Shown piece after piece: positions 4,089-23,142 of a stretch of DNA of 27,724 nucleotides. A model generated the notes under the pieces. It worked only from the letters and a program-made list of their open reading frames with translations. It did no database searches and was not told the DNA's origin. Both the position numbers and the translations under genes were made by a program. Position 1 is the stretch's first letter, and each line of letters opens with the position of its first letter. Origin of the DNA: a virus (Duplodnaviria > Heunggongvirae > Uroviricota > Caudoviricetes); the IMG/VR virus record IMGVR_UViG_2617270952_000002, positions 1-27,724 of that record, one strand, 5' to 3'.

Positions 4089-4760
4089 TTAAAAGATGTT
4101 ATCCTTACCTGTTAATTTACCTTGAGGAACTTTAGTGAGCTCCATCCGATAAAATGCTTTTATCATATTTACAAATGGCTCATATGGTGAATATTCGTTG
4201 TCTTGTTTAGTAACGGTGTCTGTCATTGTCCTGATGTAGTCTGCGCTTACCACGTTGTTGTATTCTGTTGCGAAGCAGCATAACAACGTCAGAACATGCT
4301 CTGTCGTTATTTCGCTCCAGTTGATGTTGAAAAACTCATCGCCTTTTTTATCGTGTTCGGAATCGAAGATGCTTTGGTGGAGGATGTATTTGCCGGATTC
4401 CTTGCGCGGTAACTTGATCGCTTTCTGGCGTTCCAACTCCTTGTAAATCTGCATTGCTTCAATTAGTACCGGCCTGCCGTTCATGAAGGGATCGCGCAAC
4501 CTTACACGCTGGCCAACTCGACCAGTAATAAAGCTGTTTTCCTCTTCCACCAGCACGATAAAACCCTTTTCCTCTTTTTCTCGCAATTCGCGCAGCAGCT
4601 GGAGTTCCATGTCGCGGCGGCGTTCAGGGTATCTGGTCCGCTCAGCCATTATCAGCTCGTTGTTGATCCATGCAGCAGTCATTGACGCCGGTTTGCCGAC
4701 GTTCATCGAAACAACGCATATTTTCTTATCCATAGCTCCCCCTACAAAAAGAAAAGCCAC
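4089..4760 (-). CDS. hypothetical protein (occupies the position of P1 mat, downstream of ref); alternative start at 4733
   Basis: Track ORF 223 aa; assignment by position only (from memory of P1 order cre-cra-ref-mat). Confidence 0.5.
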   Translation of the reverse strand: MAFLFVGGAMDKKICVVSMNVGKPASMTAAWINNELIMAERTRYPERRRDMELQLLRELREKEEKGFIVLVEEENSFITGRVGQRVRLRDPFMNGRPVLIEAMQIYKELERQKAIKLPRKESGKYILHQSIFDSEHDKKGDEFFNINWSEITTEHVLTLLCCFATEYNNVVSADYIRTMTDTVTKQDNEYSPYEPFVNMIKAFYRMELTKVPQGKLTGKDNIF

Positions 4761-14246: not shown

Positions 14247-14627
14247 CTACTCCGCAGAACCATACAATCTACGTAACGTGTCGGCGACAGAAGATACAGA
14301 TATCTCGCCAGTCGCAGCGCCTACAGTAAGGTCTGCCAGTTCAGGTGAATCAAATACCTGCACCCCGTTACGGCGTAGAAATAGCAGCGCGCTGTTTAGC
14401 GCGGTACGCTTATTGGCATCATTGAATATATGCCCTCTCGCTGTAGCCACCAGGTAGGTGGCGGAGACTTCGAAAAGGTCGGTGATCTCTTCGTAGGCAA
14501 CTCTGGCCTGAACTCTCCCGATAATGGCCTCTGCCCTACCCGGATCTGACATTCCCGGCAAGCCGCCGTAGCGGTTTATATTCGCATCATGAAGCGCAAT
14601 AAGTTCTTCCGGTGATATATGCCTCAT
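14247..14627 (-). CDS. doc: Doc toxin (Fic-fold kinase)
   Basis: 126 aa; Fic motif [10 protein letters not shown]; overlaps phd stop. Confidence 0.95.
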
Positions 14628-14848
14628 TATCGGTTAACCAGTTCCTTGTTGGTGGAGTCCAGGGTGTCAAACAGGGATGCAAATTCAGCATCCAGCGCCG
14701 CTTTTTTGTAGGCTTCGAAAGTAGCCTTGCTGACAATTACTGCTGGCTCACGGCCTCTGCGGGTGATTTCAACCTCTTCCCCGGCCTCAACATTGTTGAG
14801 CACTTCAGAAAGGTTGCCGCGCGCGGTACGGAAGTTAATGGATTGCAT
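14627..14848 (-). CDS. phd: Phd antitoxin
   Basis: 73 aa [49 protein letters not shown]... Confidence 0.95.
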
Positions 14849-14852
14849 AAAT

Positions 14853-14890
14853 ACCTCATGTACTCGTTATGTGTACACAATTATAAACTT
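14853..14890 (-). promoter_or_regulatory. phd-doc promoter with palindromic Phd-binding sites
   Basis: TATAAT (rc of 14880..14885) adjacent to palindrome GTGTACAC at 14871..14878, about 20 nt upstream of phd ATG. Confidence 0.6.
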
Positions 14891-15024
14891 CACAGGCATA
14901 AAGCACCAGCACTTTGCGGCTTAACAAACCTCTAGGCAGGTCATTCGTAGCCTAATGTCCGAACTGCTAAAGCATCCAAGTTGCTGTAGAATCACATCCA
15001 ATTACATAAGCCTGAAATAAGTGG

Positions 15025-16587
15025 ATGAAAATGACAAGTATTCAACAACGTGCAGAGCTTCATCGTCAAATCTGGCAAATTGCTAACGATGTCAGGGGTT
15101 CGGTCGATGGATGGGATTTTAAGCAATACGTTCTGGGCGCACTTTTCTACCGTTTTATCAGCGAAAATTTTTCCAGTTATATTGAAGCCGGTGATGACAG
15201 TATCTGTTATGCGAAACTGGATGACAGCGTAATTACTGATGACATTAAAGACGATGCCATCAAAACTAAAGGCTACTTCATCTACCCCAGTCAGCTTTTC
15301 TGCAACGTAGCTGCGAAAGCAAATACTAATGACAGACTGAATGCAGATTTAAACAGCATCTTCGTTGCTATCGAAAGTTCTGCTTACGGTTATCCTTCAG
15401 AAGCTGACATCAAAGGTTTGTTTGCTGATTTCGATACTACCAGTAACCGCCTGGGTAACACCGTTAAAGATAAAAATGCCCGCCTGGCTGCGGTTCTGAA
15501 AGGGGTTGAAGGGTTAAAACTTGGTGACTTCAACGAACATCAGATTGACCTGTTCGGTGACGCCTATGAGTTCCTGATTTCTAACTATGCGGCGAATGCC
15601 GGTAAGTCAGGCGGCGAGTTCTTTACACCGCAACACGTCTCTAAGCTGATTGCACAACTGGCTATGCACGGGCAGACCCACGTTAACAAAATCTACGACC
15701 CGGCAGCAGGATCCGGTTCGCTGTTGTTGCAGGCTAAAAAACAGTTTGATGACCATATCATCGAAGAAGGCTTTTTTGGTCAGGAAATCAACCATACAAC
15801 CTATAACCTGGCACGTATGAACATGTTTTTGCACAACATCAACTACGACAAGTTTGATATCAAGCTGGGTAATACACTGACTGAGCCACACTTCAGAGAT
15901 GAAAAACCGTTTGATGCCATCGTTTCTAACCCGCCGTATTCGGTGAAATGGATTGGCAGCGATGACCCGACGCTGATTAACGATGAACGTTTTGCCCCGG
16001 CTGGCGTTCTGGCCCCCAAATCCAAAGCTGACTTTGCGTTTGTATTACATGCGCTGAACTATCTTTCTGCCAAAGGTCGTGCTGCGATTGTTTGCTTCCC
16101 GGGTATTTTTTACCGTGGCGGCGCGGAGCAGAAAATCCGTCAGTATCTGATTGACAATAACTATGTCGAAACCGTAATTTCACTGGCACCGAACCTGTTC
16201 TTTGGCACCACCATTGCAGTAAACATTCTGGTTCTGTCCAAACATAAAACGGATACCAACGTTCAGTTTATTGACGCCAGCGAACTGTTCAAAAAAGAGA
16301 CTAACAACAATATCCTGACCGATGCCCATATCGAACAGATTATGCAGGTATTTGCCAGCAAGGAAGATGTTGCTCATCTGGCGAAATCTGTCGCGTTTGA
16401 GACCGTTGTTGCTAATGACTATAACCTGTCGGTGAGCAGCTATGTGGAAGCGAAAGATAACCGCGAAATTATCGATATTGCTGAGCTGAATGCTGAGCTG
16501 AAAACCACGGTCAGCAAAATCGACCAGTTGCGCAAAGATATTGATGCGATTGTGGCTGAAATTGAAGGCTGCGAGGTGCAGAAATGA
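15025..16587 (+). CDS. hsdM: type I restriction-modification system methyltransferase subunit HsdM
   Basis: 520 aa; AdoMet motif DPAAGSGS and catalytic NPPY. Confidence 0.95.
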
Positions 16588-17798
16588 GCGAGATGAGTTA
16601 TCTGGAAAAATTGCTGGATGGGGTTGAAGTTGAGTGGTTGCCATTGGGGGAAATAACCAAATATGAACAGCCAACAAAGTATTTGGTAAAAGCAAAAGAT
16701 TATCACGACACATATACCATACCGGTTCTTACTGCCGGAAAAACATTTATTCTTGGATACACAAATGAGACTCATGGTATTTATCAGGCATCAAAGGCAC
16801 CTGTAATAATTTTTGATGATTTCACCACCGCTAATAAATGGGTGGATTTTGACTTTAAGGCAAAATCATCGGCCATGAAAATGGTTACATCATGTGATGA
16901 TAATAAAACCTTACTGAAATATGTTTACTATTGGCTCAATACATTACCAAGTGAATTCGCAGAGGGAGACCATAAACGCCAATGGATTAGTAATTATTCT
17001 CAAAAAAAAATCCCAATCCCCTGCCCGGATAATCCGGAAAAATCCCTTGCCATCCAGTCTGAAATCGTTCGGATTCTGGATAAATTTACTGCACTTACCG
17101 CTGAGCTTACCGCTGAGCTTAACATGCGTAAAAAACAGTACAACTACTATCGCGACCAGTTGTTGAGTTTTAAAGAGGGTGAGGTTGAGTGGAAGACTTT
17201 GGGAGAGATCGGAAAATGGTATGGGGGAGGGACACCATCAAAAAATAAAATTGAATTTTGGGAAAATGGAAGCATTCCATGGATTTCCCCGAAAGATATG
17301 GGCCGAACACTTGTAGACTCTTCGGAAGACTATATAACTGAGGAGGCTGTTCTACAATCGTCAACAAAACTGATTCCAGCAAACTCGATTGCAATCGTTG
17401 TTCGCTCAAGCATATTGGATAAAGTATTACCAAGTGCATTAATAAAAGTACCTGCTACGCTCAATCAAGATATGAAAGCAGTCATTCCTCATGAAAACAT
17501 CTTGGTTAAATATATTTATCATATGATTGGGTCTAGGGGGAGTGATATTCTGCGAGCAGCGAAAAAGACAGGAGGGTCCGTAGCTTCTATTGACAGTAAA
17601 AAATTATTTTCATTTAAAATTCCGGTTCCTAACATCAATGAACAACAACGAATTGTCGAAATACTCGACAAATTCGACACACTGACTAACTCCATCACCG
17701 AAGGTCTTCCGCGTGAAATCGAGTTGCGCCAGAAACAATACGAGTACTATCGTGATTTACTGTTCAGTTTCCCGAAACCTGAAACTGTCAGTAATTAA
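16584..17798 (+). CDS. hsdS: type I R-M specificity subunit HsdS (type IC-like, TAEL repeat in central conserved region)
   Basis: 404 aa; two target-recognition domains separated by ...[23 protein letters not shown]...; overlaps hsdM stop. Confidence 0.9.
17094..17117 (+). repeat. 2x tandem 12-bp repeat (cttaccgctgag) encoding TAEL-TAEL in hsdS
   Basis: Direct tandem duplication read in sequence. Confidence 0.85.
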
Positions 17799-17919
17799 TT
17801 GATCATTGCTACCGATCGGACCACCTTAACACCCGGTCAGTATATAGACTATTTTTTACGCGCCGGAAGTCACCATTACCCCCCTTCCGGCCCTTGCCAG
17901 ACGGCACAAAGGATGCGCT

Positions 17920-20900
17920 ATGACTCATCAGACACACACCATTGCTGAATCCAATAACTTTATCGTTCTTGATAAGTACATCAAAGCTGAGCCAACAGGC
18001 GACAGCTACCAGAGCGAATCGGACCTGGAACGCGAACTGATACAGGACCTACGGAATCAGGGCTATGAATTTATATCCGTAAAATCACAGTCGGCGATGC
18101 TGGCCAATGTTCGGGAACAGCTTCAGAACCTCAATGGTGTGGTGTTTAATGACAGCGAGTGGCGGCGTTTCACGGAGCAGTATCTGGATAACCCGAGCGA
18201 TGGCATTCTGGATAAGACCCGTAAAATCCATATCGACTATATTTGCGACTTTATTTTTGATGACGAGCGTCTTGAGAACATCTATTTGATAGATAAAAAG
18301 AATCTCATGCGCAATAAGGTGCAGATTATCCAGCAGTTTGAACAGGCGGGTTCTCACGCTAACCGTTATGACGTAACTATCCTGGTTAATGGCTTACCGC
18401 TGGTACAAATCGAACTGAAAAAACGCGGCGTGGCGATTCGTGAGGCTTTCAACCAGATACATCGTTACAGTAAAGAGAGTTTTAACAGCGAAAATTCCCT
18501 GTTTAAGTATCTGCAGCTGTTCGTCATTTCCAACGGCACTGATACCCGTTATTTTGCCAACACGACAAAGCGCGATAAAAACAGTTTTGACTTCACCATG
18601 AACTGGGCGAAATCAGACAATACGCTGATTAAAGACCTCAAAGACTTTACCGCCACCTTTTTCCAGAAACATACTCTGCTTAATGTTCTGGTGAACTACA
18701 GCGTTTTTGACAGCAGTCAGACACTACTGGTAATGCGACCGTACCAGATTGCCGCCACCGAGCGCATTCTGTGGAAAATTAAGAGTTCCTTTACAGCGAA
18801 GAACTGGTCAAAACCGGAAAGCGGTGGGTATATCTGGCACACTACCGGTTCTGGTAAAACCCTCACCAGCTTTAAAGCCGCGCGTCTGGCAACAGAGCTG
18901 GACTTTATTGATAAAGTCTTCTTTGTGGTCGACAGGAAAGACCTCGATTACCAGACCATGAAGGAATATCAGCGTTTTTCGCCAGACAGCGTCAACGGCT
19001 CGGAAAATACCGCAGGCCTTAAACGAAATCTGGATAAGGACGATAACAAAATTATCGTCACTACTATTCAGAAACTCAATAACCTGATGAAAGCAGAAAG
19101 CGATCTGCCTGTATATAATCAGCAAGTGGTGTTTATATTTGATGAATGCCACCGCAGCCAGTTTGGAGAAGCGCAGAAAAACCTGAAGAAGAAATTCAAA
19201 CGCTATTATCAGTTTGGTTTTACCGGCACCCCTATTTTCCCGGAAAACGCCTTAGGCTCAGAAACAACCGCCAGCGTATTTGGTCGTGAATTGCATTCGT
19301 ATGTAATTACCGATGCGATTCGTGACGAAAAAGTGCTCAAATTCAAGGTGGACTACAACGATGTGCGGCCACAGTTTAAGTCTTTAGAGACAGAAACTGA
19401 CGAGAAAAAACTGAGTGCGGCTGAAAATCAGCAGGCGTTTCTTCATCCCATGCGTATTCAGGAAATCACGCAATATATTCTGAATAATTTCCGCCAGAAA
19501 ACCCACCGTACCTTCCCTGGCTCAAAAGGTTTTAATGCTATGTTGGCAGTGAGCAGCGTGGATGCCGCGAAAGCCTATTATGCGACGTTTAAACGGTTAC
19601 AAGAAGAAGCCGCTAATAAATCGGCTACCTATAAACCGCTGCGTATTGCGACAATCTTCTCCTTTGCCGCCAATGAAGAACAAAATGCCATTGGTGAAAT
19701 TTCCGATGAAACTTTTGATACCAGCGCAATGGACAGCAGTGCTAAAGAGTTTCTGGACGCTGCAATTCGTGAATATAACAGCCATTTTAAAACTAACTTT
19801 AGCACCGACAGTAACGGTTTTCAGAACTACTATCGTGATTTAGCCCAGCGGGTTAAAAATCAGGATATCGATCTGCTAATTGTCGTGGGGATGTTCTTAA
19901 CCGGCTTCGATGCTCCAACATTGAACACGCTATTCGTCGATAAAAACTTACGTTATCACGGCCTGATGCAGGCATTTTCCCGCACCAACCGCATTTATGA
20001 CGCCACTAAAACCTTCGGTAATATCGTCACTTTCCGGGATCTGGAACGCTCAACTATTGATGCCATAACGCTGTTTGGTGACAAAAACACCAAAAATGTG
20101 GTGTTAGAAAAGAGTTATACAGAGTATATGGAAGGCTTTACTGATGCTGCTACAGGTGAAGCTAAACGCGGCTTCATGACAGTAGTTTCAGAACTGGAAC
20201 AACGGTTCCCTGACCCTACCAGTATTGAAAGTGAAAAAGAGAAGAAAGACTTCGTTAAACTGTTTGGCGAATACCTGCGTGCCGAGAACATCCTGCAAAA
20301 CTATGATGAATTTGCCACGCTAAAAGCCCTGCAACAAATCGATCTTAGCGATCCTGTTGCGGTAGAAAAATTCAAAGCAGAACATTATGTGGATGATGAA
20401 AAGTTCGCTGAATTGCAAACAATTCGTCTCCCTGCTGATCGCAAGATTCAGGATTATCGTTCTGCCTATAACGATATTCGCGACTGGCAGCGCCGTGAGA
20501 AAGAAGCTGAGAAAAAAGAGAAATCAACCACTGACTGGGATGACGTAGTTTTTGAGGTCGATTTGCTGAAGTCTCAGGAAATAAACCTGGATTATATCCT
20601 TGGACTGATTTTCGAACACAACAGACAAAATAAAGGCAAGGGCGAAATGATCGAAGAGGTCAAACGCTTAATTCGTTCAAGCCTGGGAAACCGTGCTAAA
20701 GAGGGCCTGGTGGTCGATTTTATTCAGCAAACGAACCTGGATGATTTACCGGACAAAGCCAGCATCATTGACGCATTCTTTACGTTTGCTCAACGCGAAC
20801 AGCAACGTGAAGCAGAAGCATTGATAAAAGAAGAAAATCTCAATGAAGATGCAGCAAAACGCTATATTCGCACGTCTTTAAAACGCGAATATGCCACCGA

Positions 20901-21036
20901 AAATGGCACAGAATTAAACGAAACATTACCAAAACTTAGTCCGTTAAATCCGCAATATAAAACGAAAAAACAGGCAGTTTTCCAGAAAATCGTCTCGTTT
21001 ATTGAGAAGTTTAAAGGCGTAGGCGGAAAAATATAG
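17920..21036 (+). CDS. hsdR: type I R-M endonuclease/translocase subunit HsdR
   Basis: 1038 aa; PD-(D/E)xK-like IELKK, Walker A TGSGKT, DEAH-like FDECH. Confidence 0.95.
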
Positions 21037-21879: not shown

Positions 21880-23142
21880 TCAGCGAACGTAAATAGTGCC
21901 GCCGTTCTCTTTTTCCCATGCATCGCTACGTGCATAGCAAACATCGAGAAGTCTTCTTGCCGCTGTTTCCTCTAAACCCAATTCGACAACCAACTGCTCA
22001 TGACGGCGGGTAACCACATCAAACAGGGTATGCAGCCCTTTAGCTGCCAGATCATCAATAAATTCCGGTTCGAACGGCAGCTCTGCCTCTGCCAACATAA
22101 CCTCTTGCGCCCACTCAACTCGACGGACCAGTTCCGGGCGGCGGCTTTCCATCTCTTTACAGATCAATTCATGGAAGAACTCTACCCAACCTTCCGGCTG
22201 GAACTCGCGGAAAATGGCCAACGGCTGGAAGTTTGGCATCAACCATTCGTTGATTCGGATATCAATGGCATAGCCCATGTCGCAGCAGAACTGATAAGCA
22301 AAGTCCAGCTTAGAAACGATATAAGGACGCTCGTTATTGAACTCTTTAGGCGATGAGATCCCATAAGCCAGGAGGCGCGGGAAGAAGGAGATTTGCCCTA
22401 ACGTCGGATGAAGTTTGCTTGCAGGGAAACGTCGCTCAGTAATGCCATACATTTCCTTCTTGAGCGTCGCAAATTTGGCATTCTCATTAACCAGCGCGGT
22501 AACCTCTGCTTTTTTATTAGCAAATGCCACGCGCGCCTCACTTGCATCTTTAATAGTCTTTTTGAGCTGTTGGTTAAGGTCGGCGACCTGCTTACGCAGT
22601 TCCTGTCGCTCACTTTTGGCTTTGTTATAGCGTTTCTCAAGGTTAAAAGGATCAAGTTTCATGATCTCTTTATATTGAGATTTTAGCGTTGAAATCTGTG
22701 AGTTCCGCAGTTCAACCATCGCGGTCACTTCATTGAGTTTTGTTTCCAGCTCAATGCTTATACGTTCGGCATTATCAGCACGCTGGTTGGCGTCATGCGT
22801 CGCATCGTCGATCGCGTCCTGTTGCTGGCGTTTCAAATGTTCAATTTGCAGCTGAAGCTCTTCAATTTCTTTACCCTTCAGACCGAGATCCAACTGCATA
22901 TTTTCAGCTGCATCTACCAGGGAGTTATGGCTATCAGCTTCTGCGTTATAAACATCAATAAGCTGTGCGTGAAGCATCTCCGCTGACTGAACCGCATTAT
23001 CAAAAAAACGTGCTGTGAGGTCATCACAACTAACGCGGCGTTGCGCGGCCCGGATGTTCTGGATAATGGCCGGGATACCGGCATTCAGGACATCAGGGAT
23101 AGATACATTTTCGATTGATTGGTTTTGTGCTGAAGTGCTCAT
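21880..23142 (-). CDS. hypothetical protein with long coiled-coil N-terminal half (420 aa)
   Basis: Track ORF; heptad-rich Q/E/K/L sequence in residues ~90-230; start immediately after upstream stop. Confidence 0.55.
   Translation of the reverse strand: MSTSAQNQSIENVSIPDVLNAGIPAIIQNIRAAQRRVSCDDLTARFFDNAVQSAEMLHAQLIDVYNAEADSHNSLVDAAENMQLDLGLKGKEIEELQLQIEHLKRQQQDAIDDATHDANQRADNAERISIELETKLNEVTAMVELRNSQISTLKSQYKEIMKLDPFNLEKRYNKAKSERQELRKQVADLNQQLKKTIKDASEARVAFANKKAEVTALVNENAKFATLKKEMYGITERRFPASKLHPTLGQISFFPRLLAYGISSPKEFNNERPYIVSKLDFAYQFCCDMGYAIDIRINEWLMPNFQPLAIFREFQPEGWVEFFHELICKEMESRRPELVRRVEWAQEVMLAEAELPFEPEFIDDLAAKGLHTLFDVVTRRHEQLVVELGLEETAARRLLDVCYARSDAWEKENGGTIYVR

Follow-up and report, generated by a model that had tools for sequence, protein, structure and literature searches.

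The closest described relatives of the system reported here are the type IC restriction enzymes EcoR124I and EcoR124II. A specificity subunit (HsdS) with two TAEL units directs EcoR124I to GAAN6RTCG, whereas one with three units directs EcoR124II to GAAN7RTCG (PMC3874165; PMC7383803). In EcoR124I, the N-terminal target recognition domain (TRD) reads the GAA half-site (PMC3874165 Table 2), the C-terminal TRD reads the RTCG (CGAY) half-site, and the C-terminal conserved helix pairs with the central one in a coiled coil (PMC3874165). The change between EcoR124I and EcoR124II at the 12-bp repeat has been ascribed to unequal crossing-over (PMC3874165, section 'Gap length changes'), and in engineered type IC hybrids the spacer length changed exactly as predicted from the number of units (PMC3874165). 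Two further type IC enzymes, EcoDXXI and EcoPrrI, have three TAEL units each, and the target of EcoDXXI is TCAN7RTTC (PMC3874165). EcoR124 has been solved by cryo-EM (PDB 7BST), with chain 7bst_A as its specificity subunit. An earlier note on the DNA analysed here had given the TAEL rule (two versus three copies giving N6 versus N7), and the rule is as stated in both papers (PMC3874165; PMC7383803).

The window, that is, the whole 27,724-nt stretch of viral DNA that we analysed, was about 97-98% identical in alignment to Punavirus (P1-like) phage-plasmids. Its backbone genes include cre, c1, pacAB, lpa, pdcB, doc/phd, and pmgS, and a complete set of hsd genes lies between phd/doc and pmgS. The features of this region are as follows.

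15025-21036: hsd operon, between phd/doc (about 14247-14935) and pmgS (21880-23142).
15025-16587, + strand: hsdM, 520 aa, overlapping the start of hsdS by 4 nt (Pfam N6_Mtase and HsdM_N; 7bst_D).
16584-17798, + strand: hsdS, 404 aa, EcoR124I specificity subunit with Q258 for H258 (PDB 7bst_A; Pfam Methylase_S twice).
16644-17033, + strand: N-terminal TRD, approximately aa 21-150 (approximate bounds, from identity blocks among homologues).
17034-17183, + strand: central conserved region with the TAEL tract, approximately aa 151-200 (90-100% conservation across homologues whose TRDs differ).
17094-17121, + strand: perfect 12-bp tandem, CTTACCGCTGAG twice plus CTTA, 2.3 copies (Tandem Repeats Finder; sequence).
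17097-17120, + strand: TAEL-TAEL, HsdS codons 172-179 (translation; role per PMC3874165).
17184-17648, + strand: C-terminal TRD, approximately aa 201-355, containing Q258 (identity blocks among homologues).
17649-17795, + strand: C-terminal conserved helix region, approximately aa 356-404 (conservation; structural role per PMC3874165).
17920-21036, + strand: hsdR, 1038 aa, EcoR124I motor/nuclease subunit (Pfam EcoR124_C, T1R_D3-like, SWI2_SNF2, and HSDR_N; 2w00_A).

HsdS of the window was identical to 7bst_A at 403 of 404 residues over its whole length (E 7e-274) and contained two Pfam Methylase_S domains. The sole difference was residue 258 (codon at 17355-17357), which is Q here and H in the reference. 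The Q258 form was present on 108 natural contigs in a collection of ~15 billion proteins; among the matches listed, the H258 form was represented by a UniRef/nr reference entry only, with no contig on record. The protein has the layout of a type IC HsdS, with two variable TRDs, a central region bearing TAEL twice at aa 172-179, and a conserved C-terminal region. In the block identity pattern, the TRDs ranged from 22% to 100% identity among homologues, and the conserved regions from 90% to 100%.

The other two subunits gave the same picture. HsdM matched 7bst_D, the EcoR124 M protein, with 1164 bits over residues 1-520, and HsdR matched 2w00_A, the EcoR124I HsdR, with 2309 bits over residues 1-1038; HsdR also contained Pfam EcoR124_C (E 1.9e-71). 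The gene order hsdM-hsdS-hsdR and the 121-bp gap between hsdS and hsdR are as expected for type IC. The classical tests for such families are complementation, cross-hybridisation, and antibody cross-reaction; the sequence identity that places HsdM and HsdR in type IC serves as a proxy for these family criteria. The assignment of HsdS to type IC in the earlier note was thus borne out by the 403/404 match to 7bst_A together with the full-length matches of HsdM and HsdR to EcoR124I chains. Because HsdS differs at one residue and the other two subunits match end to end, the locus is an intact EcoR124I allele and more than a type IC relative. In type IC operons, hsdR has a promoter of its own. A promoter-like site was located at 17826-17855, but the promoter/terminator scan of the operon as a whole returned 9 sites against 12.2 expected from shuffling, i.e., not above chance.

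In a P1 reference genome, the interval between phd and pmgS is taken up by humD and about 10 kb of accessory genes; the operon of the window therefore lies at an accessory position that varies in the P1-like backbone. The phage vB_EcoM-673R5 (ON470615.2) has the same annotated order, cre, c1, pac, lpa, pdcB/A, doc, phd, hsdM-hsdS-hsdR, and pmgS, and its hsdS has three units and different TRDs. In this record (L002 15259-21210), the annotation splits hsdM into two pieces and hsdR into HsdR2 and HsdR1, which could mean that the system has decayed or that the record contains sequencing errors. EcoR124I-type hsdS is carried on a P1-like phage-plasmid here, and it is carried on ST540 chromosomes too.

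The repeat consists of CTTACCGCTGAG twice in perfect tandem at 17094-17117, in the context ...ACTGCA CTTACCGCTGAG CTTACCGCTGAG CTTAAC..., and the periodicity continues to 17121. Tandem Repeats Finder reported 17094..17121 with period 12, 2.3 copies, 100% matches, and the unit CTTACCGCTGAG. Position 17094 is a codon start in the ORF 16584..17798 (+), and the repeat is in frame. The coordinates 17094-17117 split the units as LTAE-LTAE, a trivial offset from TAEL-TAEL at 17097-17120. Both the perfect 12-bp TAEL tandem in hsdS and its two-copy state, as described in the earlier note, were confirmed by Tandem Repeats Finder and by the sequence. A second perfect 12-bp tandem, TGCTGAGCTGAA twice at 16479-16502 (+), lies in hsdM and encodes (I)AELNAELK near the C-terminus of HsdM. 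Across about 70 related loci, this hsdM tandem had no whole-unit length change and varied by substitution only (e.g., GELNAELK); it is therefore not a length-variable tract.

As described in the literature for the same protein (PMC3874165), the TAEL tract lies in the first of two helices linking both TRDs; each four-residue unit adds about one helix turn, and the domains shift and rotate by roughly one base-pair step. Two units thus set GAAN6RTCG and three set GAAN7RTCG, the EcoR124II target. The window has two TAEL units, and its TRDs are those of EcoR124I but for Q258 versus H258 in TRD2. On this sequence identity, the two-copy allele of the window is predicted to recognise GAAN6RTCG, and the enzyme would methylate and restrict at that site. 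A literature search for the N6 and N7 motifs gave laboratory EcoR124 papers only; judging from titles and abstracts, none of the 9 hits was a natural-isolate methylome.

Misalignment of the identical 12-bp units could lead to the gain or loss of one in-frame unit and thereby to a different spacer length, either through slipped-strand replication or through unequal exchange between sister copies. In hsdS there are only two 12-bp copies, changes in their number are in frame, and there is no long simple-sequence repeat (SSR). A tract of just two units must switch rarely, and this is not classic high-frequency phase variation. We regard it as very probable that the repeat is the TAEL-TAEL tract of an EcoR124I HsdS (Q258 form) in an intact operon on a P1-like backbone, in which misalignment of units can switch the spacer of the inferred target GAAN6RTCG.

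The copy number was uniform for the exact TRD pair of the window. All six full-length E. coli matches to hsdS were 100% identical 1215-bp two-copy alleles, located on three ST540 chromosomes and three plasmids, and two PLSDB plasmids also carried a 100% identical two-copy 1215-bp hsdS. In full-length DNA searches of plasmids and complete E. coli genomes, only two-copy alleles were found for this TRD pair. The close same-TRD proteins among the matches listed (P0001-P0010, which include the window's own sequence as P0001) were all 404 aa long with two units; exact TAEL-TAEL was present in eight of these listed proteins, and in P0010 the second unit was substituted (TAEL-TTEL). Synthetic one-, three-, and four-copy versions of the window's HsdS were absent from ~15 billion proteins in an exact look-up, in which the three-copy version was entered with both Q258 and H258; the two-copy protein was on 108 contigs. 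Since all synthetic alleles were absent, no natural EcoR124II twin of the window's exact allele was found. Judged from these sequences, the copy number for this TRD pair looks fixed at two in public data.

The family as a whole gave a different result. The earlier note had suggested looking for 12-bp length heterogeneity among related elements; such variation was found in the family (1, 2, 3, 4, 5, and 8 units) but not for the window's exact TRD pair, for which only two copies were seen. The note had named an invariant repeat number as grounds for refuting its reading, and the relatives do not show such invariance. We took an even-step sample of 60 from the 1368 E. coli records matching the hsdS central region. 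Of these 60, 31 were two-copy, 24 had an additional 12 bp, one had an additional 24 bp, and one had an additional 36 bp, so that about half of the sampled E. coli type IC hsdS genes were two-copy and about 40% were three-copy. At least 40 records matched a synthetic three-copy construct at full length, ungapped, with at least 97.7% identity, and the locus spans obtained with a one-copy construct imply 3, 4, 5, and 8 copies.

Otherwise identical alleles that differ by whole 12-bp units were also found in the family. The proteins P0084 (one unit) and P0059 (two) are identical outside the tract, as are P0103 (three) and P0074 (two); P0038 (three) and P0033 (two) have identical C-terminal flanks and ~99% identical N-terminal flanks, and a further pair, NC101/CUVET21, is described below. 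The most informative pair for the window involves HsdS of E. coli ET881 (WP_129327837.1), a 408-aa protein with three TAEL units that is encoded in an intact hsdMSR operon on the chromosome (L163 3501-4727). It equals P0018 (404 aa, two units, 21 contigs) at every other residue. The window's HsdS has its nearest sister allele in this pair, with TRD1 99% and TRD2 81% identical, and the diverged C-terminal TRD may correspond to a different half-site. At the level of protein sequence, ET881/P0018 is a natural counterpart of the EcoR124I/EcoR124II pair.

More distant relatives were also recovered. HsdS proteins with 50-64% full-length identity occurred in Chryseobacterium, Shewanella, Polynucleobacter, Paenibacillus, and many MAGs, their sequences indicating that these TRDs and the central helix are widely shared. 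In several distant hsdS loci on viral contigs (L068, L070-L074, and L076), a (GACA)n tract of 36-60 bp was located ~600-700 nt downstream of the TAEL region. These loci are IMG/VR contigs with unusually long tblastn matches, and the tract is at about 2200-2520 in each. They look like candidates for SSR phase-variable hsdS as in PMC7383803.

For the longest TAEL tracts, the sequence itself confirmed 8 copies in L001 and 5 in NC101; another four loci had 4 or 5 units. Their positions in E. coli are as follows.

L001 3071-3166; L157 4571-4630; L158-L161 near 4571-4630: long TAEL tracts of 4, 5, or 8 units.

In all six inspected loci with 4-8 units, hsdS or hsdM was broken by IS1, IS2, IS3, or ISEc45. 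NC101 (5 copies) and CUVET21-PYO5 (4 copies) have identical flanks and the same ISEc45 insertion; the tract therefore kept changing after inactivation. Among the 120 top homologues and the 154 viral and genomic loci, no tract had more than three TAEL units, and alleles from unbroken hsd loci had 1-3 units throughout our samples. We also compared the units at the DNA level in the 100 loci with at least two TAEL units among L003-L156, which are viral contigs and species-representative genomes from many phyla. The units were DNA-identical within the locus in 92 of the 100, and 18 codon spellings were found between loci. This combination of identity within loci and diversity between them points to repeated gain and loss of units (concerted evolution).

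These comparisons show that units were gained and lost repeatedly in the family; working systems would keep to 1-3 units, and longer tracts would be found where the system had already been inactivated. A broader reading is that the TAEL repeat is a family-wide device for evolvability that is maintained, its length policed by selection on the working enzyme, that overgrowth marks lost function, and that EcoR124I is naturally carried on P1-like phage-plasmids; we give this broader reading an even chance of being correct. The comparative pattern (concerted evolution, 1-3 units in unbroken loci, and 4-8 units in IS-broken loci) slightly exceeds the textbook account and needs a full census, the present scope being 60 of roughly 1370 E. 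coli records sampled and 6 long-tract loci inspected.

These data bear on two readings that deny the repeat any role as a switch. The tandem duplication could be a matter of chance, without significance, and the one point in favour of this is that the repeat is short (24 bp). In 200 first-order Markov simulations of the window, 0.19 perfect two-copy tandems with a period of 9-30 were expected per window (maximum 2) versus 2 observed, both inside the hsd operon. In addition, the same in-frame tract was present in 115 of the 120 top homologues and across phyla. A chance origin, whose probability we consider negligible, was rejected on the simulations and on this recurrence; it is ruled out because the same repeat is conserved in hundreds of homologues. 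A subtler reading is that TAEL-TAEL is a static motif, a conserved piece of coiled coil that fixes N6, with no biologically meaningful switch in this lineage. It agrees with the uniformity of all natural alleles that have the window's TRD pair (six identical E. coli records, and 108 contigs with no 1-, 3-, or 4-copy form), and two 12-bp units are a poor slippage substrate compared with true simple-sequence repeats. However, switching from EcoR124I to EcoR124II has been documented for this very gene (PMC3874165), and the sister allele has a natural two-versus-three pair that is identical elsewhere (ET881/P0018). The homogenisation of units at the DNA level in 92/100 loci further indicates continual gain and loss, and the tracts of broken loci have grown to 4-8 units. 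We therefore consider a static motif very unlikely and retain the reading of a tract that can change by whole units.

For such a tract, the route by which units change is a separate matter, and here the evidence is finely balanced between RecA-independent replication slippage and unequal crossing-over. The misaligned units share only 12-16 bp. In E. coli, homology of about 25 bp or more is required for RecA-dependent exchange, and length changes in short tandem repeats are largely independent of RecA; both points argue for slippage. The change in copy number (5 versus 4) within one pseudogenised lineage is also as a replication-driven process predicts. On the other hand, unequal crossing-over is the route given in the review (PMC3874165) and also in the earlier note, and the present data do not separate the two routes. 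In our search of the literature on EcoR124, unequal crossing, and recA, nothing more specific than this review was found (PMC3874165).

The practical value of these results lies in annotation, as the phage-plasmid is predicted to encode EcoR124I-type restriction at GAAN6RTCG. A single 12-bp gain would retarget the predicted enzyme to GAAN7RTCG, with relevance to the host range of the phage-plasmid, plasmid uptake, and the interpretation of methylomes. The one-unit natural pairs, the overgrown tracts in dead loci, and the DNA homogenisation add modest population-level support for the classical model. That model is not new. The TAEL mechanism has reportedly been known since the 1980s and is said to have been established in 1987-1992 for the very gene studied here, so that nothing here is conceptually new. 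The observation made in the earlier note is real and its interpretation is correct, and the case is one already known in the gene of discovery.

Among known systems, EcoR124I, the type IC prototype from plasmid R124 (PDB 7BST/2W00), is the closest to the window, with 403 of 404 HsdS residues identical, two TAEL units, and the same subunit lengths and gene order. Unlike EcoR124I, the window's HsdS has Q258, and its carrier is a P1-like phage-plasmid backbone and not the R124 plasmid. EcoR124II (EcoR124/3) has the same TRDs and subunits as EcoR124I and differs only in the TAEL tract (PMC3874165); it has three units and the target GAAN7RTCG, whereas the window has two units. EcoDXXI and EcoPrrI share the type IC family and the TAEL-bearing central region with the window but have three units and different TRDs. 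In the SSR phase-variable type I systems (Atack et al., PMC7383803), a change in repeat number in hsdS alters the behaviour of the methyltransferase, as it would here. Those systems have long mono- to penta-nucleotide tracts and high-frequency on/off switching, whereas the window has a 12-bp in-frame unit in two copies, for which a low-frequency change of the target spacer is predicted.
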